A DNA stretch of 44,784 nucleotides. Source: a virus (lineage: Duplodnaviria > Caudoviricetes). Below, in pieces: positions 378-44,784 of the stretch; the first letter of the stretch is position 1, and the number at the start of each line of letters is the position of its first letter. Below the pieces are notes generated by a model, which saw nothing but the letters and a program-made list of their open reading frames with translations, did not search any database and was not told where the DNA came from. Location of the stretch: positions 1 through 44,784 of the IMG/VR virus record IMGVR_UViG_3300028400_000012; one strand, given 5' to 3'. The translations under genes were made by a program, and so were the position numbers.

Positions 378-431
378 CCTCCTAAAGTTTTTTATATTTA
401 CAATTATAACAAAAATGTTATAAAATGTCAA
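378..431 (-). promoter_or_regulatory. Sigma70 promoter/operator cassette 1
   Basis: TTGACA(431-426)-17bp-TATAAT(408-403); palindrome TTATAACA-N4-TGTTATAA; leader AACTTTAGGAGG. Confidence 0.9.
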
Positions 432-1352: not shown

Positions 1353-1406
1353 CCTCCTAAAGTTTTCTTATGTGTTAATTATAACATATTTGTTATAAAA
1401 AGTCAA
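1353..1406 (-). promoter_or_regulatory. Sigma70 promoter/operator cassette 2
   Basis: TTGACT(1406-1401)-17bp-TATAAT(1383-1378); TTATAACA-AATA-TGTTATAA; AACTTTAGGAGG. Confidence 0.9.
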
Positions 1407-1723: not shown

Positions 1724-1733
1724 TTTTTTGCTC

Positions 1734-2246
1734 CTAAAGTCTTTCCAAGGCTGCTTTAGCCAAATTATTCATTTTAATCTTGTCAAACAGGCTGAAGCCC
1801 GCTGCGTCCAGCGTATCGACAACCAAGCTATATTTACTTTCATCCGTAAACTGTTTAAAGTTTCTGTGCATTATCTCACGTTTTACAAAGTTGTAAAAAA
1901 GCAGGTACATGGCTAAAATCTCCAAGCTCACACTTTCATTTTGGAACAATTTTAGAATATCCGGTAATCGCGTTTTCACTTTTGTTTTTACTCGCCCGGC
2001 TATCGGCAAATGTTCTTTCCACTGCATAAATTCAAAAAGTTCGTTTTTCAGTCCGGCAATATGCTTATCCAGCATCTCTTTGAAGCCAGCCGGGTAATTA
2101 AACTCTTTTTGGATAACGCCGTCTTTTTTAATATCATTCTTTGCTAAATCTTCGGCTACATACAAGAGTGCATAAGCTAAAGAGATAACAAACAAATCGT
2201 TCACATAATGCTTACTTGTTATTTTTATTCCGGTTGTAAATTTCAT
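1734..2246 (-). CDS. Hypothetical protein
   Basis: 170-aa ORF, GAGGAG SD, operon packing. Confidence 0.8.
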   Translation of the reverse strand: MKFTTGIKITSKHYVNDLFVISLAYALLYVAEDLAKNDIKKDGVIQKEFNYPAGFKEMLDKHIAGLKNELFEFMQWKEHLPIAGRVKTKVKTRLPDILKLFQNESVSLEILAMYLLFYNFVKREIMHRNFKQFTDESKYSLVVDTLDAAGFSLFDKIKMNNLAKAALERL

Positions 2247-2825: not shown

Positions 2826-3082
2826 TGCATACCTCCAAGCCCAAGCGCATCACCCTCGCTAAAACTTATCCTTAACTCAAAAAAAGTGAAATTTTCATAC
2901 AATATATCGGTAATCTGTCTTACCGCCTCTCCGTCTGTCGGGTTTTCTAATAATCTATAATATTTTTCTGTATCGCACATATTGCAAACAGGGATAATCT
3001 TACCTGTTCTTTCGGACGCATCCTTAAAAATCTCATACAGTCTTTTTCTTTTTTGTCTGGTTGTATATTTATAAACTTTCAT
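2822..3082 (-). CDS. Hypothetical protein
   Basis: TTTAGGAGG SD; CxxC motif. Confidence 0.75.
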   Translation of the reverse strand: MKVYKYTTRQKRKRLYEIFKDASERTGKIIPVCNMCDTEKYYRLLENPTDGEAVRQITDILYENFTFFELRISFSEGDALGLGGMQ

Positions 3083-3155
3083 TTTACCTCCTAAATTCGA
3101 TTTTTAGCGTTTTTATTCTCTAGCTATACAAAACTACCAACAAAGGGCAGATCGT

Positions 3156-3501: not shown

Positions 3502-4341
3502 TTATCCAAACATCACCGTATTAAAAGTTCCAATACCATTCGGCATCGGATTATTTGCAGGCTTGTCCCTATATGTACCCTCTAAGACTTTTATATAATT
3601 ACTGTCGTTTTTTATAAGCCAGTCTAAATCTATTTTCCAACCCCTATTGTTTTCACCTTGTAAAAAACTTGATTTTTCTATTTCCTGTAAAATAAGTTTG
3701 AAGTTAAAATCCGGTTCATTTAGTCTTGCTTTTAGGTGCTTTAATCTTGTATTTGTAAGTTTTCTAATTTTAGATAAGCTCAATTTACTAGCTAAGTTAT
3801 TCCAGCCATCAAGTATCTCTTTACTACTTGCTTTTTTGCTTATAGAGGATTGAACTTCAAATAAAGCTTGTTTGCTTTTTGGGCTGTGTGCTTTTTTTTC
3901 ACTATAAGCTTTTACGCCTTCGGCGTTTTTATTCTTTTGTTCTAGTGTATTTTGTTCTATTGTATTTTGTAGGTTAACGTCATTTACTAGGGGTGGTAAA
4001 TGAGATTTACTAGGGTGGTTAACGTCATTTACTAGGGGGTCGTTAATTTCATCTATGATTTTTCCTGTAAGCGTATAAGAATTATAGGAGTTTGCACCGT
4101 TTTGAAGTTTGTGTTTTTGTATCTCTATAAGCCCTCTGGAAGATAACTTTTTCAAGGTGCTTATCACTTTAGGTCTCGATATTCCTAAATCTTTTTGAAA
4201 CTGGCTCAATGAAATACCATCAAAAGTTTTACCCCATCCGATTGTTTTTCTTACTATGTGAGTAAGTATAGCACGCTCATAAATATCTAAGTCCAAATCC
4301 CATAAGTAATTTGGCATTTGAAAAAAACCGCTATTTTGCAT
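3502..4341 (-). CDS. Phage replication initiator (lambda O-like, N-terminal wHTH)
   Basis: ILTHIVRKTIGWGK..DGISLSQF...LGISRPKVISTLKKL; C-terminal SSFLQGEN.RGWKIDLDWLIK...YIKVLEGTY; internal iterons. Confidence 0.9.
   Translation of the reverse strand: MQNSGFFQMPNYLWDLDLDIYERAILTHIVRKTIGWGKTFDGISLSQFQKDLGISRPKVISTLKKLSSRGLIEIQKHKLQNGANSYNSYTLTGKIIDEINDPLVNDVNHPSKSHLPPLVNDVNLQNTIEQNTLEQKNKNAEGVKAYSEKKAHSPKSKQALFEVQSSISKKASSKEILDGWNNLASKLSLSKIRKLTNTRLKHLKARLNEPDFNFKLILQEIEKSSFLQGENNRGWKIDLDWLIKNDSNYIKVLEGTYRDKPANNPMPNGIGTFNTVMFG
3931..4045. repeat. Replication origin: iterons and AT-rich repeats inside the initiator gene
   Basis: GGTTAACGTCATTTACTAGGGG at 3972-3993 and 4017-4038, variant GGTAAATGAGATTTACTAGGG at 3995-4015; adjacent TTTTGTTCTA repeats. 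Confidence 0.8.
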
Positions 4342-4607
4342 TTTGAATCTCCAATTTTAAATTTTGGAGTAGGTAGAGTCATTGGAAGATTTTAGTACTT
4401 TCGACATGACTGCTCAAACTCCATTTTTAAACCTTTCTCCTCTAAAAAACCTAAGCGGGGGAGCTACCGCCCGCCTAAAAGGTTGTTTTTGGAGTCATGT
4501 CAAGCCGTACTAAAGGCTTAAAAAAAGAGTTTTACACATGTTTAGGTGCCGCCCAAAAAAGAGCGGCTTCACATCATGTAGCCCACAAAGGCAACCAAAT
4601 TATAACA
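4342..4607 (-). promoter_or_regulatory. Extended -10 promoter and ~250-nt structured 5' leader of the initiator gene
   Basis: TGtTATAAT (4607-4599); nested inverted repeats 4391-4514; CTCCAA/TTGGAG hairpin over the SD (4349-4369). Confidence 0.6.
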
Positions 4608-4709
4608 AACATTGCTTTAAACAAGCTTTAAAAACATTCTAAAGCGGCAAAAACACAAGTGAACAGAAAAATTAAGTGTAATTTTATGGCATTTTGATAT
4701 AATTGTTTT

Positions 4710-4827
4710 GCGGGTTTTGGGAACCTGTAAACTTCTAGCCTCCTAAAGTTACAAGTTTTTTCTCAATCCTTTTTTTGATGGGCACTTCTCTCTAAGGGGC
4801 GTTAAGCCCCGCCCATCTCTCTTTTTT
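4710..4827 (+). ncRNA. Candidate small RNA with an anti-Shine-Dalgarno loop
   Basis: TGaTATAAT at 4695-4703; hairpin 1 4708-4730; hairpin 2 4729-4758 with loop CUCCUAAA; terminal stem GATGGGC/GCCCATC plus U-run; G-U pairs favour the + strand. Confidence 0.7.
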
Positions 4828-5039
4828 GCACTATCCCCCCACTTATTTTATTATAATTTTTGTCTTTTGTGTAGGGAAGTTTTTGCATATTTTTTTATCG
4901 AAAATATACCTATACAAATTCTATATTTTGATATATAATACTCTTGTTTTTTTGTATGCACTCCAATATAGCGGCTATTGTTTTGTACTTTCGCGTAGCC
5001 GCTATATATTACTTCTTTGTTATAAAACTTTAAGCAAAA

Positions 5040-5079
5040 CTTTCTTATAATACACTATATCAAAACTTTAGGAGTTAAT
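5040..5079 (+). promoter_or_regulatory. -10 promoter with the shared AAAACTTTAGGAG leader (no -35 or palindrome)
   Basis: TATAAT 5046-5051; leader identical to the 6870 leader (AAAACTTTAGGAGTTAATATG). Confidence 0.6.
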
Positions 5080-5946
5080 ATGCAATATAATATGGAAGTA
5101 TTTAAAAAACCGGAACATACGCTTACTCAATCGGAGCGTATCGAAAAACTTGAACTTCTTTTAAAGTCAAAAGAGGTAAAAGGCAAAGCTTTCCATATGC
5201 TGGGGTCGGCTGATAAGGCTAAAAGCCTTTTGGCAAAAATTACCCAGATTTCTGACATGTACGCTGTTAAGAGTTGTACTTTAAAAAGTGTTATTGATAC
5301 AGCTATCACGATTGAGGCTCTCGGGCTAGAAATTATCCCGGAACTAGGTGAAGCATGGATTATCGGATACAAAGGCAAAAGCGGCTTCCAGACCGCCAAG
5401 CCGGACATTTCCTATAAAGGTTGGAAAAAGCTTGCAAAAAGACAAGGCTACGCGGTTGATGCTGAAGGCGTTTTTACTGAAATTGCCGATCAGCTAAAAG
5501 ACTGGTCAGATGTTTTTTCTTTTCAGTATAGACGAAAAGTAAAATCCGGTAACGTTCAATGGGTAAAAGAAAATTTAGAAGGCGTTGTTGTAAAAATTGA
5601 AGATTTGAAAAGCAGACATACAGAGTATCGCTATGTAGATATTTCAAAACTCGACCAGATTATGAAAGTTTCCCCCTCTGTAAAAAAAGGCGGCGAAACT
5701 CCCTATAAAGAATGGTATTATGAAATGGTCGTTTTGGCAAAGGCTATGAAATACATTTTGAAAAAGGAAATTTCCTTTGACGAAAATATCTCGGCTGCAC
5801 TTGCTGAAATTTACAAAACTGACGCTACTGCTGCAAAAGAGATTAAGCCGGAACCGGAAACAGAGGACGCGCCATCAATTCCGTTTGCAGAAGTACAAGA
5901 CACAGAAGTTACAGATGTACCAGAAAATGAAACAGACGCTAAGTAA
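5080..5946 (+). CDS. recT: RecT/Redbeta-family ssDNA annealing protein
   Basis: LGLEIIPELGEAWIIGY...PDISYKGWKKLAKRQG...PYKEWYYEMV..AKAMKYILK; acidic tail. Confidence 0.85.
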   Translation: MQYNMEVFKKPEHTLTQSERIEKLELLLKSKEVKGKAFHMLGSADKAKSLLAKITQISDMYAVKSCTLKSVIDTAITIEALGLEIIPELGEAWIIGYKGKSGFQTAKPDISYKGWKKLAKRQGYAVDAEGVFTEIADQLKDWSDVFSFQYRRKVKSGNVQWVKENLEGVVVKIEDLKSRHTEYRYVDISKLDQIMKVSPSVKKGGETPYKEWYYEMVVLAKAMKYILKKEISFDENISAALAEIYKTDATAAKEIKPEPETEDAPSIPFAEVQDTEVTDVPENETDAK

Positions 5947-6810: not shown

Positions 6811-6869
6811 TTGACATTTTATAACTTTTACGTTATAATTATACTACAAATAAAACTTTAGGAGTTAAT
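6811..6869 (+). promoter_or_regulatory. Sigma70 promoter/operator cassette 3
   Basis: TTGACA(6811-6816)-17bp-TATAAT(6834-6839); TTATAAC-N6-GTTATAA; AAAACTTTAGGAG. Confidence 0.9.
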
Positions 6870-7361
6870 ATGAACACATTTAAGGCAGTTTACAACAACA
6901 AGGGGTTTACAATAGAGTCAAACGGAATTGACGCGGCTAAAATAGCGTTTGCTATAAGTCTATTGCTATTTGAGAGGAAAGAGGATTTTGATATTTTTAT
7001 AGATATTACAAAATTAGGCATTGCAATCATGGAGAAAAAAGAGGATATACAAAAAACGTTTTTTAAAGCCGCACGCAAAAGTATCGGCGATATAAATGAA
7101 CCACTATATATGATTATTACTGAAAGTGGTTTTCTTGATCTCAATGTAAATAGTATATTCTTGCATACTCTTTTAAGTGCGCTTATTGTAGAAATTATAT
7201 CCGAAAATATGGATAAATCAGACTATATTCTTGAAAAATTTAGCCAAACATTTTATGGGCTACTTGAGATAAAAGACAAATCCGCTGAAGAAAAAGGCAA
7301 AGAATGGAGCAGAGAAGATTTTGTAGCTGCCTATCTGGGAACTGTTTTAGCGGAAGATTAA
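6870..7361 (+). CDS. Hypothetical protein (cassette-driven)
   Basis: 163-aa ORF with strong SD and promoter. Confidence 0.8.
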   Translation: MNTFKAVYNNKGFTIESNGIDAAKIAFAISLLLFERKEDFDIFIDITKLGIAIMEKKEDIQKTFFKAARKSIGDINEPLYMIITESGFLDLNVNSIFLHTLLSALIVEIISENMDKSDYILEKFSQTFYGLLEIKDKSAEEKGKEWSREDFVAAYLGTVLAED

Positions 7362-11396: not shown

Positions 11397-13147
11397 TTTT
11401 CACCCCATTCGATAAAATAAAGCCTACATACCGTCATATCTTTTTTATCTGCTTCTATTCTTATAGTTGTTTCATTATTGGATACATCAATCGTATTGTA
11501 AAATATTTTTGTTCTGTCATTTTTAATCTCCGTTCTATTTATAGTAAGCTCCTCTCCAAACAAATAAACATGGAAGTCATTAATATGCTCAATGCCGTCA
11601 ATTATTCCTATTTCAAAAATAGGTGTTATTTGTTTTGTTTCCTTTATTATTTTATACGGAATTTCAATATAAGCATTATCAGCAGTTGCAATTAGGCAAT
11701 GTTTATCAATACCATCTGTTTCATCAAAATTTTGATAATCTAAACCAAAGGTCTTGAAATACTCAAAGTCATATTTATCTATTGCTTTATAATTTTTGTT
11801 CTGCCCATAATCTATTTCTCTTGTTTCAAAATAAATTTTATATTTTGCACCGTGCGTTACAAAATATCCCCAAAAATAAAATTTTTTATCTTCTAATATA
11901 TCAATACTAAATTCTAAAAATTTTAAATTATCACCGCTTGTATAATATTTATCATCGTTGCAATATCCCCCAACTCTAATATTGCCAAAATATCCAAATG
12001 TACCATTCCCAATGCGTCCGTCAAGATCGCCTTTGTATGGCGTAAAGGACTCTATCCTTACAAAAAGCTCACCAGTAATAAGGGATTCAAAGTAAAACTT
12101 ACTATAAAACTGTTCAGCACCTCCTATATTTCCATAATAGAATATAGTTCCACTTGCTGGAAAATCTTTTAAGTGAATTGGATTTATTATAGTTCCCTCA
12201 CAATCTTCAGGTAGATTATCCAAACAATTGTCGCTTGCATCAGCATTTTTACAGCTTAAAATATACTCTTGTTTCCAATCGTCTTCAAACTTTATAGAAT
12301 CTCGATTATCTACCCATCCCCTCAAAGCTACTCTTGCTTCTGAAACAACTGAATTTTTGCCGTTAAAACTATAACTATCCAAAGAAAAAAGCCCGACTTG
12401 CTTCGTTGCGAAAGGGTCGATAAAAGTAACTTTTTTCATTATCCAGTCATTTAAATAGTTATTAGTACCGTCAATGTTTGCAAACTCTAAACGTCGATAT
12501 TTTGCTGAAAACAAACCTGATAACTTACTTCTTAAGTATGCTGCTGACGGGTCATCATTATTAGCCGCATCTTTAAAAACTGTATATGTTACATTATAGG
12601 TACTATCCCAACTCAAAAGATTTGTTTCTCCAGAATCCCTACCACCTGTAAGCTGTTTCGGAATAGATACAGCCTTAGCACTTTGTGAAAAATTCCAATT
12701 TAAGCACCCTAAAAATTCAGGTATCCCATAATCGATTCTTCCAATATAGCCAGTTCCGTTTAGCGGGTAGATATAAATTTCCATAAAACCGCTATTTTGT
12801 ATTGCGGTCATTTCAAGATAAATATTAATATCGTAAAAACTTTTTATCATTTCTCCACCGTTTATAATCGGTCTCGAAATAAGCCTTTCAGTCTCTTTTT
12901 CTTTTTCCTCTAAAAGATTTCCACTGTTATCAAAAACTTTGACTTTTACTTTTGAAGCTGAAATATTATGAAAAACTACAAATTGCATATCGTCATAAGG
13001 AACCTTCAAATAAAGATAATTTTCGCCATCTGGGATTTTTGTAACAGTATTGTATCTATCATCAAAAAGTTTAACTATCTCTCTCGTCGTTGTATTATGC
13101 TCAACAACATCACGCCACCCGATTTTCTGCTCTAAGATGTAATTCAT
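11393..13147 (-). CDS. Tail tip/structural protein
   Basis: 584 aa directly after the tape measure gene; beta-rich. Confidence 0.6.
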   Translation of the reverse strand: MNYILEQKIGWRDVVEHNTTTREIVKLFDDRYNTVTKIPDGENYLYLKVPYDDMQFVVFHNISASKVKVKVFDNSGNLLEEKEKETERLISRPIINGGEMIKSFYDINIYLEMTAIQNSGFMEIYIYPLNGTGYIGRIDYGIPEFLGCLNWNFSQSAKAVSIPKQLTGGRDSGETNLLSWDSTYNVTYTVFKDAANNDDPSAAYLRSKLSGLFSAKYRRLEFANIDGTNNYLNDWIMKKVTFIDPFATKQVGLFSLDSYSFNGKNSVVSEARVALRGWVDNRDSIKFEDDWKQEYILSCKNADASDNCLDNLPEDCEGTIINPIHLKDFPASGTIFYYGNIGGAEQFYSKFYFESLITGELFVRIESFTPYKGDLDGRIGNGTFGYFGNIRVGGYCNDDKYYTSGDNLKFLEFSIDILEDKKFYFWGYFVTHGAKYKIYFETREIDYGQNKNYKAIDKYDFEYFKTFGLDYQNFDETDGIDKHCLIATADNAYIEIPYKIIKETKQITPIFEIGIIDGIEHINDFHVYLFGEELTINRTEIKNDRTKIFYNTIDVSNNETTIRIEADKKDMTVCRLYFIEWGEK

Positions 13148-19110: not shown

Positions 19111-19192
19111 TTATGTCCTTTAAATTTTTTTTAGTCCTTTAAGAAAGTAGGGTACAGAGTAAAGGACTGACAAAACCTCTGTACCCCGATTG

Positions 19193-20131
19193 TTATCTCG
19201 GTGTAACGATAAGCTCAAAAGCTCGACCGTTCGCGTCATCAAACAATCTAATATTTCGTCTTTGGAGCCACTTCAAGCCAGATTCTCCCGGCTCACCACG
19301 TTTTTCAAGCCCCTTGTTGATCTTCAATTCCATTTTGTAATTTTTGGAATAAAGCATAAAAGAAATAGTTACATCGCTATCATTCAGCCAGTTTGTAATA
19401 GGAACAAGGTTGCTATCGCCTGTCGCGTCCAATACCTCACTAAAACTAAGAGTCGGCGCGATATCTTCTAATACGATATCGGAGCATACCTGACTATCAT
19501 CACCAGTATTGATTTGCGGATTAAGTGCCAGAGAAATATCGCCAAACGGGCATTTTTCAATACCGCCGACAATAACCTTGCTATCTCTAGTCAAAGAGAA
19601 AAAAGATGTTTCGGTAAAGGTTGGAGTTACCCCACTAACATTCTGTAAATCAGCTGGATTGTACGCTCCGTTCATTGCAAGATTTCCGACAACCCTTGTA
19701 TTTGCTGCACTTGCTGTAATACCAAACCCGGAAACAATTCCATTGATAAGATATTTCATAGTTCCGCCTTTGTAATAGACGGCTGTACCCTTCTCAACAT
19801 CGAGTGACGGGTAGAGTGTAATTTTGTTGTTTGTCGTATCAATTTCCTGCTTAAAGCCCGCCGCCTGCAATAGTTCAAATTGCGGCATACCGCTAGCAAT
19901 ATCAACGGGTTCAAATAGAGAAATATTCGCCGTTGCTGTGATTTTGATATTGTCTTTTACTTCTTTTGTATCAGTTGCATTACCTTTTCCAGTTCCGACA
20001 TGATTGACATCAAACGTTACCGGATTTTCGCTAAGCTGCACATACCCATCTGTAAGGTATCCATTCGCTGCTGTCGGTTCGGTCGCCCCTGTTTTGTAAA
20101 GTAAAAAGTCTTTACTTTTTAATAGGCTCAT
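19193..20131 (-). CDS. Major tail (tube) protein
   Basis: 312 aa, LLQAAGF motif, position upstream of the chaperone. Confidence 0.8.
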   Translation of the reverse strand: MSLLKSKDFLLYKTGATEPTAANGYLTDGYVQLSENPVTFDVNHVGTGKGNATDTKEVKDNIKITATANISLFEPVDIASGMPQFELLQAAGFKQEIDTTNNKITLYPSLDVEKGTAVYYKGGTMKYLINGIVSGFGITASAANTRVVGNLAMNGAYNPADLQNVSGVTPTFTETSFFSLTRDSKVIVGGIEKCPFGDISLALNPQINTGDDSQVCSDIVLEDIAPTLSFSEVLDATGDSNLVPITNWLNDSDVTISFMLYSKNYKMELKINKGLEKRGEPGESGLKWLQRRNIRLFDDANGRAFELIVTPR

Positions 20132-22001: not shown

Positions 22002-22110
22002 TAAAAAGCTCCACTTTTTTATTTTACAAGTCGATTTTAGGACGTATAAGTATCTTTTTAGTTAACTTTTTAGTATAGAATATTATTAAAATTTGCAAAA
22101 AGGCGTTAAA

Positions 22111-22425
22111 ATGCTCTACGATTATAATGAAGATGATTTTTTAATTTCGACCGTTTCAAACCCAGAGGATTTGCAGGATTTTGAAAATGATTCAAAATCA
22201 GAAATTGAAAAGCTAAATATTAGCGACAACTTTTACAAAGAAAGGCTTATTAAGTTAGGCGTTTACAAAAGAATTGCAGGTGCCAGATTAGAAGCTGAAG
22301 GTGACGTTATGGATAAAAAACTCCAATACTATACAAGAGAGTGGGATAAATTTCTTACAATGTATAAAACCTCAAACGCTTCTGTTCAAAATTCTGTTTC
22401 ATCAGTTCCAATTTATAGAGGTTAA
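22111..22425 (+). CDS. Putative head-tail adaptor
   Basis: Helical 104 aa ending VSSVPIYRG; first gene of the neck block. Confidence 0.6.
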   Translation: MLYDYNEDDFLISTVSNPEDLQDFENDSKSEIEKLNISDNFYKERLIKLGVYKRIAGARLEAEGDVMDKKLQYYTREWDKFLTMYKTSNASVQNSVSSVPIYRG

Positions 22426-22427
22426 AA

Positions 22428-22805
22428 ATGTTTAATAAACTACTTGAAATAAAAAATGCTCTTTTGGAAATGCCCGGAATTGATACGGTTAAAATTGGTC
22501 TTGAGTCAAATCTTACCGCCGACGCATGCCCTTTTATTCGTATTATCGCCCAGCCTTCACGTCCAAAGCCAGATAGTTTTGGCATTACAGAAATGGAAAT
22601 TGAAATTGTTTATGGTGAAAAGGTAAACATTCGCACAAATTTAGAAGAGACTTATCAAAAGATTTACGAAACAGAAAAACTAATAAAAGACAGACTGGAG
22701 TCAATAGGCGCGTTTTGGATTGAAACCGTACCAGACGGTGATACGCTAACAAATCTAAAGGTTTCAAGCATTTATTTTAAAGTAGAGGTTTCATGTGGGC
22801 ATTAA
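22428..22805 (+). CDS. Putative tail terminator/completion protein
   Basis: IKNAL......TVKIG...PFIRI pattern; neck context. Confidence 0.6.
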   Translation: MFNKLLEIKNALLEMPGIDTVKIGLESNLTADACPFIRIIAQPSRPKPDSFGITEMEIEIVYGEKVNIRTNLEETYQKIYETEKLIKDRLESIGAFWIETVPDGDTLTNLKVSSIYFKVEVSCGH

Positions 22806-23244
22806 AATAGAGGGATTAAAAGAGGTTATAAACTACCTAAATAAACTTTTTAACGATACCGGAAAAAAGGCATATATTGAAAAGCTTACTGAAAGAGGTT
22901 ATCAGCTTTCAAAAAGAGCAGTTTCAAGACATACAAAAACCGGACGTATGGAACGAAACTTAACCAAAAGGGTGAGAGGAAACACGGGGGAAATTTTCTT
23001 CTTAAATCAAGGCATGATTAAAGGCGGGGTGAATTACGCGCTTTTTGTTCATTATGGAACTCGTCCACACTCTATTTATCCCAAAAACAAAAAAGCTCTT
23101 CGATGGAAAAGCGGCGGAAAATTTGTTTTTGCCAAAAGAGTCAATCATCCAGGCTACAAGGGCGACCCGTTCTTTGACAGGGTTCAAGCCCAGCTTGAAA
23201 ATGAAGCGCCTAACATATTTTACAATACAGTAGAAAAGGAATAA
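22795..23244 (+). CDS. HK97 gp10-like neck protein
   Basis: IKIEGLKE, TGRMERN, YALFVHYGTRPH, VNHPGYKGDPFF. Confidence 0.85.
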   Translation: MGIKIEGLKEVINYLNKLFNDTGKKAYIEKLTERGYQLSKRAVSRHTKTGRMERNLTKRVRGNTGEIFFLNQGMIKGGVNYALFVHYGTRPHSIYPKNKKALRWKSGGKFVFAKRVNHPGYKGDPFFDRVQAQLENEAPNIFYNTVEKE

Positions 23245-23246
23245 AA

Positions 23247-24524
23247 ATGAATTATAGACAGGCATGGAAATTTATTAACGACGCTTATACAGGCGATAAT
23301 GGGTTTTATGATGGCGGTGAAATAGATAAATACACAAGAGAGACAGACGACAAAATTAGAAATAGAAGAGAAATAGCCTACTATTCAAACCTTTTTGAGA
23401 GTAAAGTTAATAGGTACATAGGCTATCTTTACAAGCGACCACCATTAAGAAACGTATCTAAAAACAAACTTCTTGAAGGCTTTATTAATAACTGCAACAA
23501 TAAAGGCGATCATCTCGATGTTTTTATGAACCAATTTACAAAATTTGCCAAAGCAAAAGGCGTGAACATCCTCCTAATTGACAACGTTGCAGAAATACCG
23601 GGAACTTTCGAGGAACAACTCGAAAAACGCGCATATCCATATATCCAACAAATCAAGCCAGAAAATATTACAAACTACAAACTTGATGAATTTGGAAATT
23701 TTGAATTTGTAGCCTTCAAAGATGCTTTAGATGAATCGACATACCAAAAAAAAGATACAAAAAACGTAATAAGATATTTCGACAAAACAACATGGGTTAT
23801 TTACGATCAAAGCGGCGAAAAGATATTAGACAACGGGGAGCATGATTTAGGAGTTTGCCCGGTTATTTACTTTAGCGAAAAAGGGGAATTTGAGAGTTTA
23901 GGGGAATTTTCAAAACTTGCATGGCTTTCTAAGCGACACTACAACCTACATAGCGAACAAGATGAACAACTAAGAGGAAATACCTTTTCTATCTTGACGA
24001 TAAACGGTAGTGCAAACTCTGAAATTAAACTAAGCACTGACAACGCCCTATTTTATGAAGGACAAAAAGCCCCTTCATTTATTGCGCCGCCTAGCGACCC
24101 GATGGCGGCATATAGTGAGAAAATTGATAAACTTGAAATGCTAATGGATAAAATAGGGTATGATATTACTACCTCCAAAAGTGCCGAGTCAGGAATTAGC
24201 CTTGATATTAAATTTCAAGGTCTCAATAGTTCTTTGAGTGCCTTTGCCAGATCAGTAGAAATTTTTGAAATGAAGATTTTTAATATTGTCAAAAAATATC
24301 TCGGTATTGAAACAGAGGTAAATATCGCATACAAAAAAGATTTCAACCTTGTCGATGTTCACAAAGAGCTTGAAACACTTAAAATGGTTGACGATATTGC
24401 AGATATTCCAACATATCGCGCTCTAAAGCTAAAACAAATTATTAAATCCGATCTTCAAAATGTTACCGATGAAGAAATGGCTCAAATTATTGCTGAAATT
24501 GAAGATAGTCAAAAAGAAGTATAA
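23247..24524 (+). CDS. Portal protein
   Basis: 425 aa; AYYSNLF..KVNRYIGYLY, GEHDLGVCPVI, AESGISL portal motifs. Confidence 0.88.
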   Translation: MNYRQAWKFINDAYTGDNGFYDGGEIDKYTRETDDKIRNRREIAYYSNLFESKVNRYIGYLYKRPPLRNVSKNKLLEGFINNCNNKGDHLDVFMNQFTKFAKAKGVNILLIDNVAEIPGTFEEQLEKRAYPYIQQIKPENITNYKLDEFGNFEFVAFKDALDESTYQKKDTKNVIRYFDKTTWVIYDQSGEKILDNGEHDLGVCPVIYFSEKGEFESLGEFSKLAWLSKRHYNLHSEQDEQLRGNTFSILTINGSANSEIKLSTDNALFYEGQKAPSFIAPPSDPMAAYSEKIDKLEMLMDKIGYDITTSKSAESGISLDIKFQGLNSSLSAFARSVEIFEMKIFNIVKKYLGIETEVNIAYKKDFNLVDVHKELETLKMVDDIADIPTYRALKLKQIIKSDLQNVTDEEMAQIIAEIEDSQKEV

Positions 24525-24933: not shown

Positions 24934-25175
24934 TATACTTCCTCCCAAGCGTCTAACATATCTACCTCTTCTATAAGCTCTTCAATGCTTTCCGCATCAA
25001 AGGCGACGCCATCTTCATCATAAGCTTTAATTTTGTCATCATTTTTTACATTGACTATATAGCCATCATAGGTATATAAATGCCCATGCTCGTTCATATA
25101 GCCAGCAGGGCTTTGACCTAAATCAATTTCACCGCGTCCCTCAATCCAAATTTTTGTAAGTGGTAATCTCAACAT
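24933..25175 (-). CDS. Small acidic hypothetical protein (cassette-driven)
   Basis: AGGAGG SD; TAATG coupling to ArdB. Confidence 0.8.
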   Translation of the reverse strand: MLRLPLTKIWIEGRGEIDLGQSPAGYMNEHGHLYTYDGYIVNVKNDDKIKAYDEDGVAFDAESIEELIEEVDMLDAWEEV

Positions 25176-25181
25176 CTTAAA

Positions 25182-25233
25182 CCTCCTAAATTTATTTATA
25201 CTTAATTATAACATATTTGTTATAAAATGTCAA
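25182..25233 (-). promoter_or_regulatory. Sigma70 promoter/operator cassette 4
   Basis: TTGACA(25233-25228)-17bp-TATAAT(25210-25205); TTATAACA-AATA-TGTTATAA; TTTAGGAGG. Confidence 0.9.
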
Positions 25234-29267: not shown

Positions 29268-29342
29268 GCGTACATAGCTTAATGGCAAAGCACCGCTTGA
29301 CCAAAGCGGGGAAGGGAGTTCAATTCTCACCTGTACGCTCCA
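29268..29342 (+). tRNA. tRNA-Gly-like RNA (ACC, non-canonical)
   Basis: GCGTACA TA GCTT AATGGCA AAGC A CCGCT TGACCAA AGCGG GGAA GGGAG TTCAATT CTCACC TGTACGC T CCA; G33 and a bulged T-stem. Confidence 0.85.
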
Positions 29343-30021: not shown

Positions 30022-30629
30022 TTTTCCCCAACCCTATTAATAAAAAATTCGCATATATAATAAAGCGCGTTCCCATTACTATTGTCGTTTACGCCTTGCG
30101 GGTCTTGCAACGGGAAAGTTTTTGCCAGTGAGAGACTTTTGGTTACTATGTCATGCTGTTCAGATGAAACAGTAAAGGTCATATTTGTTATTGGTGTCTT
30201 ATCACCAGAGGGCAAATCCAGCTCGACATCTTCAATGTTCTCAATATCTAAAATCTCATCATCGTCAAAGCCTAAAACGCCAATGTCAAAATCTTCTGAC
30301 TTTAAGTCAATAATTACCTGATCGAGCAAATCTTTATCAAAAAAACTTTCATCCGCCACCCGGTTGTCTGCAATAGCAAAAGCCTTCAATTGTTCCGGTG
30401 TCAAGTCGTCTGCTCTAATACAGGGAATTTTGTCTATCATTAGGCTTCTGGCTGCTTCAAGCCTGCCATTTCCCGCGATAACGATATTGTTTTGATCTAT
30501 GATTATCGGATTTTTGAAGCCAAATGCTTCGATTGATTTGGCAATTTTTTCGATTGATTTTGTAGAGTGAATATTTACGTTTTCATCGTTTAGGTGAAGC
30601 TCTGATTGGTCTATATATTCTATTTGCAA
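30018..30629 (-). CDS. ParB/Srx N-terminal domain protein coupled to mom
   Basis: SIEAFGFKNPIIID..NIVIAGNGRLEAA...AFAIADNR; TTG start with GGAGG SD. Confidence 0.88.
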   Translation of the reverse strand: MQIEYIDQSELHLNDENVNIHSTKSIEKIAKSIEAFGFKNPIIIDQNNIVIAGNGRLEAARSLMIDKIPCIRADDLTPEQLKAFAIADNRVADESFFDKDLLDQVIIDLKSEDFDIGVLGFDDDEILDIENIEDVELDLPSGDKTPITNMTFTVSSEQHDIVTKSLSLAKTFPLQDPQGVNDNSNGNALYYICEFFINRVGEK

Positions 30630-30708
30630 AATAACCCTCCTTTTTATAGGTTATTTTGCCTTATTTTAAGTTATTTTTCAAGAGTGGTTAAATATCTTTA
30701 ATTTTTTT

Positions 30709-30933
30709 TCATTTTATTATTTTGTAGTCCAGTATCGTTTGAACAAAACTTGTTTTATAAAAATAAAACAAATTAAGCACCGGGACATAGAATATTATAG
30801 CAACAACTGCAATTTCAAACAAATTTCTTACAGTAAGCCCGTCCAGAAATATGCCTTTGCGATTTGCATCAATAAGCAAATCAATAATATTGTATGTACT
30901 TATAGCCAATGAAATATAAATCAATAATTGCAT
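30709..30933 (-). CDS. Small membrane protein
   Basis: Two hydrophobic segments, PVLNL. Confidence 0.65.
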   Translation of the reverse strand: MQLLIYISLAISTYNIIDLLIDANRKGIFLDGLTVRNLFEIAVVAIIFYVPVLNLFYFYKTSFVQTILDYKIIK

Positions 30934-31680: not shown

Positions 31681-32000
31681 TTTGCCGCTCCTATTTTTTC
31701 AAAAAAACTCCTATGTATCAAAAGAGCTTCATATGCGTCTTTAGAAATTTTACCGGCTTTTGCCATTTTTCTGGCATCTTCTATCTTCCCGCCCGCCTTG
31801 ATATACTTGTAAGCCTCATTCTCTGCCAGAAGTGCTTTGTCAGCACCTAAATTTGTCATGTGCTTAGCAAACTCTATCCAAAAAGCCGCACATTCGTTAT
31901 CAATTGGAGCAAAGCTATATTCCTTTGCAATGTTAAAGTATTTTGCTCTTATATCCTCTGCCCATATGATCTGCTTTTGTGTTCCAAGCAACTTTTTCAT
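31677..32000 (-). CDS. Conserved phage protein (L.GT.KQI.WAEDIR...A.FWI type), cassette-driven
   Basis: Recurrent phage motif; strong SD. Confidence 0.75.
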   Translation of the reverse strand: MKKLLGTQKQIIWAEDIRAKYFNIAKEYSFAPIDNECAAFWIEFAKHMTNLGADKALLAENEAYKYIKAGGKIEDARKMAKAGKISKDAYEALLIHRSFFEKIGAAK

Positions 32001-32006
32001 ATTAAA

Positions 32007-32058
32007 CCTCCTAAAGTTTTTATAAGTATATTATAACAAATAAGTTATAAAATGTCAA
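32007..32058 (-). promoter_or_regulatory. Sigma70 promoter/operator cassette 5
   Basis: TTGACA(32058-32053)-17bp-TATAAT(32035-32030); TTATAAC-N6-GTTATAA; AACTTTAGGAGG. Confidence 0.9.
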
Positions 32059-35061: not shown

Positions 35062-35379
35062 CTACCCCCTGCTTAAATGTTCGTATAAGTCACCGGGATT
35101 ATTTTCCCCCATCCTAATAATACTCTCCTTGATATCATCATCGGACAAATAACCGTCAAGATATTCGACTAGTCGCGATTTTTCGCTAAATTCAAGCCCG
35201 GTCAAGCCACTTAAAACAGACGTTAAAGATGGGTTTCCCATAACAATTCCGATAAGTGCACTTCTTCGCGCTGCCCAACTCAACTTCCCACTGACGATGT
35301 CTATCTCTTTTAGTTTATCCTTTATACCGCACGCCTCTAACAAATTGTTTTTTGAGTGGTCATATTTTACTTTTTCCAT
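35062..35379 (-). CDS. Hypothetical protein
   Basis: AAAACTTTAGGAG leader without the promoter part. Confidence 0.75.
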   Translation of the reverse strand: MEKVKYDHSKNNLLEACGIKDKLKEIDIVSGKLSWAARRSALIGIVMGNPSLTSVLSGLTGLEFSEKSRLVEYLDGYLSDDDIKESIIRMGENNPGDLYEHLSRG

Positions 35380-35406
35380 TTTTCTATCTCCTAAAGTTTT
35401 TTGTTT

Positions 35407-36725: not shown

Positions 36726-36892
36726 TATTTCCCCTCCTTTGTTTCGTTTTGTTTTTTGACAAAATCCAAATAATCCTTTTCGGTTTTGTCGCCTCTGCGT
36801 ACCTCTTCTAGGATACGCATTTCTTCAAGCTCTTTTTTTGTAATTTCGGTCTGCCTTAAGCCTGCCAAAAGCTCAAAAAGAATCTCTTTCAT
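36725..36892 (-). CDS. 55-aa hypothetical protein (cassette-driven)
   Basis: True start MKEILFELL after AGGAGG. Confidence 0.75.
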   Translation of the reverse strand: MKEILFELLAGLRQTEITKKELEEMRILEEVRRGDKTEKDYLDFVKKQNETKEGK

Positions 36893-36898
36893 CTTTAA

Positions 36899-36951
36899 CC
36901 TCCTAAAGTTTTGATATACGTTATTATAACACATTTGTAATACAATGTCAA
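36899..36951 (-). promoter_or_regulatory. Sigma70 promoter/operator cassette 6
   Basis: TTGACA(36951-36946)-17bp-TATAAT(36928-36923); degenerate left arm; AACTTTAGGAGG. Confidence 0.88.
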
Positions 36952-41671: not shown

Positions 41672-42049
41672 TTATATGCTATCCCACACCTCCAATTTTT
41701 TATTTAATTCACTCTCGATCTCGCTCCTGAAAAGTTCAGCTTCGTCTATCCACACATCACCGTAAATATTATTTTCATTGTAGTAGTGAAGAGCATGGTT
41801 AATAGCTTCACCCCAACCCATTTCAATAGCATCTTTTATAGCCGGGTGATTTTCTGGAATAAAACTAAAATCACCTCTAATCGCCAGCCACGCCGCCAAA
41901 TGTGACGGAGTAAAACCGACCTGTGTCATTTCGTCTAATACAAAAGAGGTTAAGATTTCAAGCCCCTCTTTTGCCGCCTCTGAAAGAGTATTTTCATCAA
42001 CTCTTTCGCTTTCCTCTTTTTTTATCAAATCTAATTCATAAGCTTCCAT
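41672..42049 (-). CDS. Acidic hypothetical protein (cassette-driven)
   Basis: AGGAGG SD and promoter cassette. Confidence 0.8.
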   Translation of the reverse strand: MEAYELDLIKKEESERVDENTLSEAAKEGLEILTSFVLDEMTQVGFTPSHLAAWLAIRGDFSFIPENHPAIKDAIEMGWGEAINHALHYYNENNIYGDVWIDEAELFRSEIESELNKKLEVWDSI

Positions 42050-42058
42050 TTTTCTAAT

Positions 42059-42109
42059 CCTCCTAAACTTTATATACTATATTATAACATATTTGTAACA
42101 TAAAGTCAA
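42059..42109 (-). promoter_or_regulatory. Sigma70 promoter/operator cassette 7
   Basis: TTGACT(42109-42104)-17bp-TATAAT(42086-42081); degenerate left arm; TTTAGGAGG. Confidence 0.88.
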
Positions 42110-42603: not shown

Positions 42604-42799
42604 ACCCGGACAGATCGAACTCTTTTCCTACGTCCAATTTTTTTTCCGGTATTTTTTGTACTGGCTCGTCATCTATAATAGCATTAACAATTTTTTCTCG
42701 CTTTTTCTTCGGTCTGCTTTTTGGCTCATACGTCATCGTCAAATGTATTCCAATAGCGACCAATAAGATAAAAGCTCCACCCCAACACTCTAAACACAT
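42578..42799 (-). CDS. Small membrane-anchored protein
   Basis: N-terminal TM; AGGAGG SD. Confidence 0.65.
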   Translation of the reverse strand: MCLECWGGAFILLVAIGIHLTMTYEPKSRPKKKREKIVNAIIDDEPVQKIPEKKLDVGKEFDLSGCENGQCHV

Positions 42800-42809
42800 T
42801 TTCTACCTC

Positions 42810-43796
42810 CTAAACATACGGCATTGTAATTTCATCTTTGTAGGTCTCTTCGACCACCTCAACCCCAAAAATGTCGCTATGATCTATTTCAACTGTAAAT
42901 AGTCGATCATAAGCTCTATTTTTGTGGCACTTCAAAAATCTTTTTGTTTCGTCATACTGTACTTGTCCGGCTTCATCCAAAATAGGTTTTCCGGCTGCAT
43001 CTCTCAAAATAGGCTTTAGCATATAGAAAATAAAATCACTGTCATATTCCGCTGCATTTCCATACTTCAAAGCCAGTACGCCATTTTTTTGATCTGCCTG
43101 TGAAAGTTGATTAATCAAGTAGATATTTATATTCAAGATACTTGTTAGCTCTTTCAAGGTATCACTAATTTTCATAAACAACTCAACACCGTCCTTACCC
43201 TTACTTCTGATTTTCATAGCACTATCTATCACAAAGTGTCTAACACCGTCGGCATAGAGATATTTAATCTCCTTTATGATCTCTTCCAATTCGCGCCCGG
43301 AATTGTAATAAAGGATATTTTTTTCTACTCTATCAAAAGCTTCAAGCTTCTCTAAAACCTGCTCATCGGACATCTCAAAGTTAAACCAACTCACTGGCTC
43401 GACCTTGCTAAAACCAGATAATATTTTCATAAACAGAGACGTTTTGCCACTGCCCGGACTGCCTGCCAGCTGGATAAAGTTTCCTAATGGGAACCCGCCC
43501 AGTTTTAGCCCGTTGTACTCTTTTTTTGGTACTAGCTCCCGATCAAGTTTTGCTATCCCGGTTTCTCTCGGTATCGGTCGTGGTTCATTCCTTTGCCGTT
43601 CTCTCAATACTGCCAAAGGAATTGATTTTTTGGCTTCGACTTCAGCATCAATCTCGTCTAAAATCTCCTGCCTCAAGGCTAAAAATTGACGCTCAAGCGT
43701 TTTCCCTTGTTCAAAATCATCGCTTGCATAGGCTTCCTTGTACTTGATCTCAAGCTGTTTTGCCTTTTGGAGTTTGATTTTGAGTTCATCTCTCAT
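42810..43796 (-). CDS. DnaB-like (SF4) helicase motor domain
   Basis: TGIAKLD, GSPGSGKTS, FNFEMS, FVIDS, INQLS, AEYDSD, KNR. Confidence 0.88.
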   Translation of the reverse strand: MRDELKIKLQKAKQLEIKYKEAYASDDFEQGKTLERQFLALRQEILDEIDAEVEAKKSIPLAVLRERQRNEPRPIPRETGIAKLDRELVPKKEYNGLKLGGFPLGNFIQLAGSPGSGKTSLFMKILSGFSKVEPVSWFNFEMSDEQVLEKLEAFDRVEKNILYYNSGRELEEIIKEIKYLYADGVRHFVIDSAMKIRSKGKDGVELFMKISDTLKELTSILNINIYLINQLSQADQKNGVLALKYGNAAEYDSDFIFYMLKPILRDAAGKPILDEAGQVQYDETKRFLKCHKNRAYDRLFTVEIDHSDIFGVEVVEETYKDEITMPYV

Positions 43797-44056
43797 AATA
43801 GCCTCAACTCTCTTTTTTCGTCTTCTGTCAGATATTCCCAGTCTGCAAAATCAATCTTATAAACATCAAATGTCCGACCATCTGACATTTCTGCTTTTAT
43901 AATTAGGTCTCCGTTTTTATCAACTACCGCAAACTCATTTTTCGCAACTTTTAATTCTTTATTTAACAGCTCCTCTGTTAGCTTTCCAAAGGCTCTTACC
44001 ACGCTTTCTGCAATATTTGCCTTAATTTTTACGTCATCTAAATCTATTTTCATCAT
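43793..44056 (-). CDS. Hypothetical protein coupled to the helicase gene
   Basis: TTTAGGAGG SD; ATGA overlap with the helicase. Confidence 0.75.
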   Translation of the reverse strand: MMKIDLDDVKIKANIAESVVRAFGKLTEELLNKELKVAKNEFAVVDKNGDLIIKAEMSDGRTFDVYKIDFADWEYLTEDEKRELRLL

Positions 44057-44528
44057 TTTCTAGCCTCCTAAAATATTTTTTTGTTCTTCTTAACTTTTCT
44101 GCTATTACAGGTGCACGGCTAAATATTATATCAGCCCCCTGTTTGTAATTATTTGGTTTTGTTTGCAATGCCCATAGATAAGCTTCATCTGCAATGTCAT
44201 TTTTCTCCTGTTTTGTTCTCGGCGTGTAACCATATCTTTTTAGCGCATGCCCGACAATTTTAAATCTATCTTCATATAGCTTTATTTTGTCGTCATAGCT
44301 TATACCCGCTGGTTTATTCACCGCTTCAAAATACTCTTTTATTTTTCTTGTAACATCACTATTCAAGACTTTTTCGATAACATCATCAGGATAAATTCCG
44401 CCACGCTGCTGCCACCCCAGCGTTATCCAGCCTCTATTTAAGGCTCTATAATAAACCGGACGCGATATAACGCCCAGCTCTCTCAATACTCCCAAATCTT
44501 TCTTTGAGACGCTTATTTTTGTTCTCAT
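44034..44528 (-). CDS. Hypothetical protein, possibly DNA-binding
   Basis: Start MRTKISVSK with AGGAG SD; ELGVISRPVYYR is HTH-like. Confidence 0.7.
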   Translation of the reverse strand: MRTKISVSKKDLGVLRELGVISRPVYYRALNRGWITLGWQQRGGIYPDDVIEKVLNSDVTRKIKEYFEAVNKPAGISYDDKIKLYEDRFKIVGHALKRYGYTPRTKQEKNDIADEAYLWALQTKPNNYKQGADIIFSRAPVIAEKLRRTKKYFRRLENDENRFR

Positions 44529-44784
44529 TCTATCTCCTGAATTTCGCACTCTAAACCCAAAATAGGATTTACTTCATATTCCTCAATGTTTTTCCATTCT
44601 TCGCCTGTGAAGTACCAGTAGATAGCTCCAGAGCGACGCTTAAAAGTCCATTCTCTAATAACCGCGCCGGGTCTAAAAGTCCCAAGAATCCCGGCTTCAC
44701 GTGCTGCAACTGATTTATTGAACCAAACTGCCCGGTTGTTGCCGTCGGCATCTTCCAATACTTCAAAGTCATACACAGCTTTGA
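44525..44784 (-). CDS. 3' part of the junction-spanning hypothetical protein
   Basis: YDFEVLEDADGNN... is in frame with the ORF starting at 371. Confidence 0.85.
   Translation of the reverse strand, partial: KAVYDFEVLEDADGNNRAVWFNKSVAAREAGILGTFRPGAVIREWTFKRRSGAIYWYFTGEEWKNIEEYEVNPILGLECEIQEIE
44649..44784. repeat. Terminal direct repeat (right copy)
   Basis: Matches 1-136 with one mismatch; unit length 44648 bp. Confidence 0.97.

Follow-up and report, generated by a model that had tools for sequence, protein, structure and literature searches.

The phage DNA analysed here (the window, a single stretch of 44,784 nucleotides) carries a candidate small RNA of about 118 nt. This RNA probably acts in trans, blocking the ribosome-binding sites (RBSs) of 13 early, recombination and replication genes that share a leader tag and lowering their translation as a group. 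The promoter, the terminator, the complementarity between RNA and tag, and the confinement of the tag to non-structural genes can be read directly from the sequence. If this interpretation is correct, one short RNA would play, for a set of scattered genes, the part that a repressor protein plays at promoters, by way of a tag that the phage has standardised.

The predicted RNA locus and its surroundings

The original prediction described an extended -10 at 4695 followed by hairpins and a U-run, and this arrangement was confirmed on the plus strand by sequence and by folding. The locus comprises the following features, to which a second copy of its -10 sequence is added.

4695..4703, plus strand: extended -10 promoter TGATATAAT of the predicted RNA, identified by sequence and without the operator palindrome
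4710..4827, plus strand: predicted small RNA, ~118 nt, with ends set by promoter and terminator
4710..4728, plus strand: stem 1, weak, with G-U in 3 of 8 pairs, competing with alternative folds
4729..4758, plus strand: stem 2 of the MFE fold, with arms 4729-4739 and 4748-4758 and loop CUCCUAAA at 4740-4747
4733..4750, plus strand: seed, the complement of the leader tag plus the tag's 3' extension (sequence matches, pairing energies)
4777..4827, plus strand: intrinsic terminator, with stem 4777-4817 and tail to 4827 (fold z -4.0; U-tail on the plus strand only)
4784-4795, plus strand: CU-rich bulge of 12 nt in the terminator (fold)
44125..44133, minus strand: second TGATATAAT -10, upstream of the top predicted target, the gene at 44056 (sequence)

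A TGnTATAAT is in itself no rarity, with 3.85 expected by chance on both strands; the genome has 11, and the site at 4695 is the only one on the plus strand. Among the 11 sites, the RNA's own version, TGATATAAT, recurs at 44125..44133 alone, besides one TGCTATAAT. The promoter may resemble a Campylobacter consensus. When both strands were scanned, the terminator proved to be the only hairpin in the genome at or below -18 kcal/mol with a U-rich tail after it.

Compared with shuffled sequences, the terminator half of the RNA is markedly stable (z -4.0), while the 5' half is not (z -1.15 on the plus strand, -1.12 on the minus strand) and has several folds within 1 kcal/mol of each other. The predicted three stems with an exposed loop are thus a reasonable model, though not the only one. 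Within the 5' half, CUC at 4740-4742 is unpaired in nearly all folds (0.91-1.0 at 37-60 °C); the rest of the stem 2 loop is unpaired at about 0.4-0.6, and the entire 8-nt loop is open in about 36%. The U-tail is confined to the plus strand; the fold as a whole is about equally stable on the two strands (z -2.66 and -2.73). No Rfam family matched the RNA (E <= 5 in 4300-5100; gathering score across the window).

Further structured elements surround the locus. The leader of the rep gene (minus strand, 4341-4607) runs for ~260 nt from an extended -10 at 4599-4607 and is strongly folded (z -4.7; -80.0 vs -70.8 kcal/mol for the other strand). Within it lie an upstream ORF of 10 codons (at 4424), a pair of long helices that exclude one another and lie within 4.3 kcal/mol, a hairpin resembling a terminator (4453-4472) and another that covers the rep RBS; the leader looks like a plasmid-style replication switch. 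On the plus strand, a second promoter-hairpin-U-run unit of ~75 nt (4933-5022, z -3.5) has a loop in which 9 nt are complementary to the last part of the rep upstream ORF (4395-4403), a match found nowhere else in the genome; targeting of the rep leader by the 4966-5010 hairpin was dropped as a candidate, the hybrid lying outside the 15 best genome-wide. Three 22-nt iteron-like repeats (3972-4038) lie inside the O-like rep gene and are the likely origin, and 4342-5079 was rejected as origin on account of this position.

The leader tag and its predicted pairing

The tag recurs in 13 leaders, each exactly complementary to the RNA over the length given below. All 13 match lengths in the original prediction (9-15 nt) were exact on recomputing.

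378..389, minus strand: 12 nt, leader of the gene at 371
1353..1364, minus strand: 12 nt, gene at 1346
1731..1740, minus strand: 10 nt, gene at 1723
3087..3095, minus strand: 9 nt, gene at 3082
5064..5074, plus strand: 11 nt, recT-like gene at 5080
6854..6864, plus strand: 11 nt, gene at 6870
25182..25190, minus strand: 9 nt, gene at 25175, upstream of an antirestriction gene
32007..32018, minus strand: 12 nt, gene at 32000
35388..35398, minus strand: 11 nt, gene at 35379
36899..36910, minus strand: 12 nt, gene at 36892
42059..42067, minus strand: 9 nt, gene at 42049
42806..42814, minus strand: 9 nt, gene at 42799
44058..44072, minus strand: 15 nt, strongest predicted target, gene at 44056, immediately preceding the DnaB-like helicase gene

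In these leaders AGGAG(G) stands 5-8 nt ahead of the ATG. The 11-mer CTCCTAAAGTT, with at most one mismatch, has 13 matches against 1.35 expected, a number seen in 0 of 100 shuffles. The tag precedes 13 of 46 non-structural starts and 0 of 26 structural ones (Fisher p 0.003, with gene classes and start codons being our own choices). The 16S end of the assembly that contains the contig, CCUCCUUUCU, is unable to pair with the AACUUU head of the tag, although this assembly may not be the host's. Matches had also been proposed for other CU-rich stretches of the RNA; the 11-nt match to the 42234 leader holds and is confined to that leader and the RNA, whereas the 8-nt match to the 36631 leader occurs five times.

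Binding energies that include accessibility were lower for the 13 tagged leaders than for 60 others (median -11.8 vs -6.2 kcal/mol, p 1.7e-6), a comparison that is partly circular because the match itself served to define the tagged leaders. The mean predicted binding of the RNA was -13.3, compared with -8.9 +/- 1.8 for shuffled RNAs, and none of the 60 shuffles was as good. Medians for the tagged and for 15 late leaders were -13.6 and -5.7 at 37 °C, -13.2 and -5.5 at 50 °C, and -11.9 and -4.8 at 60 °C. The best target is the 44056 leader, which pairs over 17 bp including G-U and whose promoter has the RNA's own -10 sequence; the recT leader is among the weaker ones (-8.1 kcal/mol). Two untagged leaders, 36631 and 30021, rank among the tagged ones via other CU stretches.

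Of the tag's 14 copies, the orphan one within the RNA locus is the copy whose complement binds the other leaders best (-18.6 vs -16.9 for the next), because it combines the AACUUU head found in the cassette leaders described below with the CUAGAA tail of the internal leaders. Rank 1 of 14 is a modest test, since five copies have an identical 12-nt core. In silico, the exposed CU segment invoked in the original prediction binds the tagged leaders best, but the fold that would expose it is ambiguous.

RNA pairing across a Shine-Dalgarno sequence normally blocks initiation. In the proposed mechanism, host sigma-70 RNA polymerase would start near 4710 and stop at 4818-4827. The CUC tip of stem 2, predicted to be always open, would nucleate on GGAG; stem 2 would then open, and 9-17 bp would cover the Shine-Dalgarno region. 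Because the loop is CUCCUAAA and differs from the 16S-type CUCCUUUC, the RNA would prefer the UUUAGGAG leaders of the phage to late and host leaders of the AAAGGAG type. As its promoter is without an operator, the RNA would build up during infection, and the accumulating RNA would end the early pulse or keep leaky early messages silent. A protein repressor bound at the palindromes of seven target promoters would act alongside it.

These seven tagged genes (371, 1346, 6870, 25175, 32000, 36892 and 42049) start with one cassette, in the order TTGAC, the palindrome TTATAAC-N6-GTTATAA (its right half serving as the extended -10), 13-15 nt, the tag and ATG. A promoter with an inverted repeat is thus linked to the tag in 7 of 13 cases. 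The palindromes are:

404..423, strand not assigned: operator-like palindrome TTATAAC-N6-GTTATAA between -35 and -10
1379-1398, 6819-6838, 25206-25225 and 32031-32050: further sites of the same palindrome
36924-36943, 42082-42101 and 5006-5025: imperfect palindromes

Over the target promoters, five palindromes are perfect and two imperfect, and the N6 spacer is free in the perfect five. Such palindromes with a free 6-nt spacer appear to be the mark of a dimeric DNA-binding protein, so a protein repressor is implied at the seven target promoters. The promoter-palindrome pattern was also found in 22 viral loci, each with at most 3 genes in common with the phage, and is therefore a common operator design. 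The suggestion that the RNA stands in for a missing CI repressor is consequently doubtful: no HTH_3 match was found on the contig, but the operator palindromes point to a protein repressor acting at the DNA level. Most likely, the RNA adds a second tier of control beneath the operators and does not replace CI. Separately, the protein encoded at 44034-44531 (minus strand) weakly resembles sigma-70 region 2, as judged from its features and a model, below the level at which it could be named, and is a candidate transcription regulator.

Phage and likely host

The uncultured phage comes from a deep-sea vent setting. Its DNA is present in one vent metagenome run, a possible source, and the DNA reads of that run show zero variants in the RNA region. 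The window makes up one entire contig; the genome is circular, with a terminal overlap of 136 nt, and encodes a tailed-phage gene set (O-like replication initiator, DnaB-like helicase, RecT, exonuclease VIII, terminase, portal, capsid and tape measure); ThyX, dUTPase, Mom-like and antirestriction proteins were also among the 79 proteins scanned. No match to a tyrosine integrase or to HTH_3 was found anywhere on the phage contig. The head-tail/portal gene block (22093-24524) runs in the opposite direction to the remaining genes of the structural operon. A tRNA-like gene (29268-29342, plus strand) lies between the small terminase and Mom-like genes, opposite to its neighbours; ARAGORN calls it Gly with the unusual anticodon ACC, and its loop is without the usual U at position 33.

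The contig was binned in an assembly of another phylum, whose 16S is Ignavibacteria-like and which we take to belong to the class Ignavibacteria. The phage is compositionally foreign to this assembly and probably mis-binned, judging by its tetranucleotide correlation with it (0.61, compared with 0.97-0.99 for six similar-sized contigs). No match was seen between CRISPR spacers of the assembly and the phage, and no close RecT or TerL relative was found in 400 (RecT) and 100 (TerL) genomes related to the assembly. All six RecT matches among phage records are to Campylobacter, Helicobacter or Nitratiruptor phages. Four of the best six TerL matches are Helicobacter pullorum prophages, with a Thermoanaerobacterium phage also among the best matches, and one nearest ThyX cluster is mostly Campylobacterota. 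Protein matches thus make Campylobacterota the likely host, in line with the setting assumed originally, although the contig was binned with an Ignavibacteria-like assembly.

Close RecT and capsid homologues exist (57-67% identity). Searches with RecT, Rep or capsid in viral contigs, metagenome contigs (where the phage contig alone was returned) and genome contigs yielded no relative, and TerL scans returned distant phages alone, with at most 2 genes in common with the phage. Three motif scans of viral contigs gave no homologous RNA locus, DNA matches for 4300-5100 among phage records did not go beyond one of 50 nt (E 0.07), and the phages DA10 and NrS-4 hold zero TTTAGGAGG copies.

Origin of the orphan tag copy

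The orphan copy (4739-4750; minus-strand tag at 4750) was scored with a matrix derived solely from the 13 leaders, the orphan itself being left out. It reached 22.2 bits and rank 7 in the genome, and the best other non-leader site reached 14.8. It is the only high-scoring copy without a start codon and without an upstream cassette promoter. The full 12-mer has five copies in the 45-kb phage and one in the other 3.76 Mb of the assembly.

The copy could be the leftover RBS of a lost minus-strand gene, with the plus-strand promoter and terminator serving some other purpose. Like most genes it lies on the minus strand, where a GTT that lies 6 nt beyond AGGAGG opens a frame of 34 codons whose end is hydrophobic, and a TATAAT-like site is present upstream (4850-4856). 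However, ATG, GTG and TTG are all absent at a usable distance, and within 70 nt upstream there is no trace of a cassette promoter (score -27, compared with 33-44 for the seven cassettes). A decayed minus-strand leader had been named from the outset as one of the findings that would overturn the RNA, and neither a relic cassette nor a start codon turned up there. Nor would one expect a decaying site to bind better than the rest of its family, or to sit in a hairpin tip between a promoter and a terminator of the opposite strand (36 nt past the plus-strand TGnTATAAT and 27 nt ahead of the terminator hairpin). We consider a relic rather unlikely.

The promoter at 4695 might instead be an upstream promoter of the rightward recT-exonuclease unit, with 4710-4827 a terminated leader that is read through under antitermination, and its pairing with leaders a side effect or one that concerns the recT message alone. 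The RNA unit does point at recT, 250 nt downstream, with the second promoter-hairpin-U unit (promoter at 4933, hairpin and tail at 4966-5022) between them, and the mirror copy of the tag in Cluster K mycobacteriophages, discussed below, sits in a late leader. Yet recT has its own -10 (5046-5051) and is one of the weaker predicted targets, and the RNA's best matches belong to genes that lie far away on the opposite strand, which makes an attenuated recT leader unlikely.

It is quite unlikely that the tag is a protein-binding or ribosome-enhancing element for which a minus-strand RNA serves as a sponge, or that the plus-strand RNA protects or activates its targets. The minus strand folds nearly as well, with the tag again at a hairpin tip, and RNA or protein partners were left open for the start-associated sequences (SAS) of Cluster K phages in the available text of Pope et al. 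(PMC3203893). On the minus strand, however, the strong hairpin is without a U-tail, and Shine-Dalgarno pairing is described as normally blocking initiation (PMC8687705, in the portion available). A chance match, which a post hoc search in an AT-rich genome might produce, is very improbable, as none of 3000 shuffled versions of the 709-nt intergenic region and no site in 150 third-order Markov genomes reached the score of 22.2; the orphan tag copy is a real, non-random feature. A trans-acting RNA directed at the tagged leaders remains our preferred explanation.

Comparison with known systems

The occurrence of similar arrangements elsewhere was assessed in 116 unrelated viral loci, which hold 51 orphan TTTAGGAG copies. 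An antisense -10 accompanies 18 of these and a terminator as well 7, and all seven belong to one phage family. The ~80-nt promoter-hairpin-terminator unit of this family is present in 21 loci, with CTCCTAAA kept in 17. Its loop is complementary to TTTTAGGAG leaders, a tag that makes up 16 of 187 distinct AGGAG leaders. Only the -10 is shared with the vent RNA, which makes the unit a looser analogue. It has no Rfam match; in a representative locus it lies at 19184-19290, and two twister-P5 ribozymes are found at 12520 and 13341. In the literature outside subscription journals, including the available text of a 2025 review (PMC12197685), no tested case of a dedicated tag with a mirror RNA was found.

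The c4 antisense RNA of P1 and P7, the classic phage example, is described as cut by RNase P from a precursor and as having three stems with a' and b' loops (PMC5320573, PMC12197685, both in part). As proposed for the vent RNA, its loops pair in trans with ribosome-binding regions of the phage's own message, but c4 lies upstream of an icd-antirepressor operon, the one operon that it controls, whereas the vent RNA has 13 dispersed predicted targets. Features of c4 were not detected at the vent locus: Rfam C4 was unmatched (E <= 5 in 4300-5100; gathering score in the window), no antirepressor was found among the 79 phage proteins scanned, and the genes downstream of the RNA encode RecT-like and exonuclease VIII proteins.

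In Campylobacter jejuni, CJnc190 represses a G-rich RBS through a C/U loop without Hfq and needs RNase III processing; RepG of Helicobacter pylori is a stand-alone gene in a lineage without Hfq and ProQ (PMC8687705, from the portion available). The vent RNA is similar in having a C/U-rich loop complementary, in silico, to G-rich RBSs, and in standing alone like RepG. CJnc190 and RepG differ in being host RNAs with one or few targets, and no sequence similarity was detected with Rfam. The small RNA of the Vibrio cholerae phage satellite PLE, which we take to be the one named SviR, differs from the vent RNA in being made by a satellite and aimed at its helper phage, and we know of no dedicated common tag among its targets. 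It is reported to act on several phage messages (10.1101/2022.04.08.487710, in part).

In layout, the closest counterpart is found in Cluster K mycobacteriophages, which carry 13-bp SAS, half of them with inverted repeats (Pope et al., 2011; PMC3203893, as far as available). In four K1 phages (Anaya, Adephagia, Angelica and CrimD), the same source describes a single reversed SAS that is not tied to a start. Freeman et al. (2024; PMC11373665, available portion) show the SAS-linked inverted repeats to lie in promoters and locate the late transcription start in the gap separating gene 92 from gene 93. Both papers, in the text available, state the role of SAS as unknown. Extended SAS (ESAS)-type tags are also described in Cluster EF Microbacterium phages (PMC7302621, in part).

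As in the vent phage, SAS and ESAS are extended RBSs ahead of dispersed non-structural genes, in at least 10 copies, about half of them with an upstream promoter holding an inverted repeat, and, in the four K1 phages named, with one mirror copy away from starts. Motif sequence, GC content and host phylum differ and there is no homology, so SAS/ESAS are analogues and not homologues. The mirror copies differ too, as that of the vent phage sits in a stand-alone promoter-terminator unit and that of Cluster K lies in a ~300-nt leader at the late transcription start.

In Adephagia we located the reversed SAS in the gene 92-93 gap, a region with matches in 197 records; on the transcribed strand, this reversed copy forms the loop of a long hairpin. 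Twelve Cluster K leaders, chosen to span the divergence and with LeMond and Paola left out, were aligned, and 7 of the 17 pairs in the stem of the anti-SAS hairpin have changed on both sides, in a structure derived from the same alignment of related sequences. The loop is exactly CCUCCUAUCCC in five leaders, degenerate but CU-rich in four and lost in three, and no anti-SAS-type loop was seen at the LeMond and Paola loci. The SAS itself is unchanged in all eight Cluster K phages read; covariation between SAS and loop is ruled out, the SAS being constant where the loop varies. No mirror copy was found in the right arms of TM4 or Pixie, nor in the whole genome of AnnaSerena, which has 10 SAS, so a pairing partner is common among tagged phages but not required.

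The same gap (Adephagia 30560-30860) contains, behind a conserved TAGACT -10-like box, a multi-hairpin RNA conserved in Cluster K, in which 14 of 59 predicted pairs have changed on both sides. The anti-SAS is among its loops, and several records place a hypothetical protein across this RNA.

By analogy, the vent RNA would work like c4 and like RepG and CJnc190 while being a member of neither group, and its layout matches that of SAS/ESAS. We tentatively propose that phages of unrelated hosts may repeatedly have evolved a private RBS tag with a mirror hairpin RNA as a translational off-switch for early genes. The vent phage would then be a compact stand-alone version, and the K1 reversed SAS would be the partner of the SAS, shutting early translation as late transcription starts. 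The uncultured vent phage, whose RNA has no relatives on record, is the weaker test case of the two. For the mycobacteriophages, the function of SAS, called unknown in 2024 in the available part of PMC11373665, gains a concrete test, as Adephagia grows on M. smegmatis.
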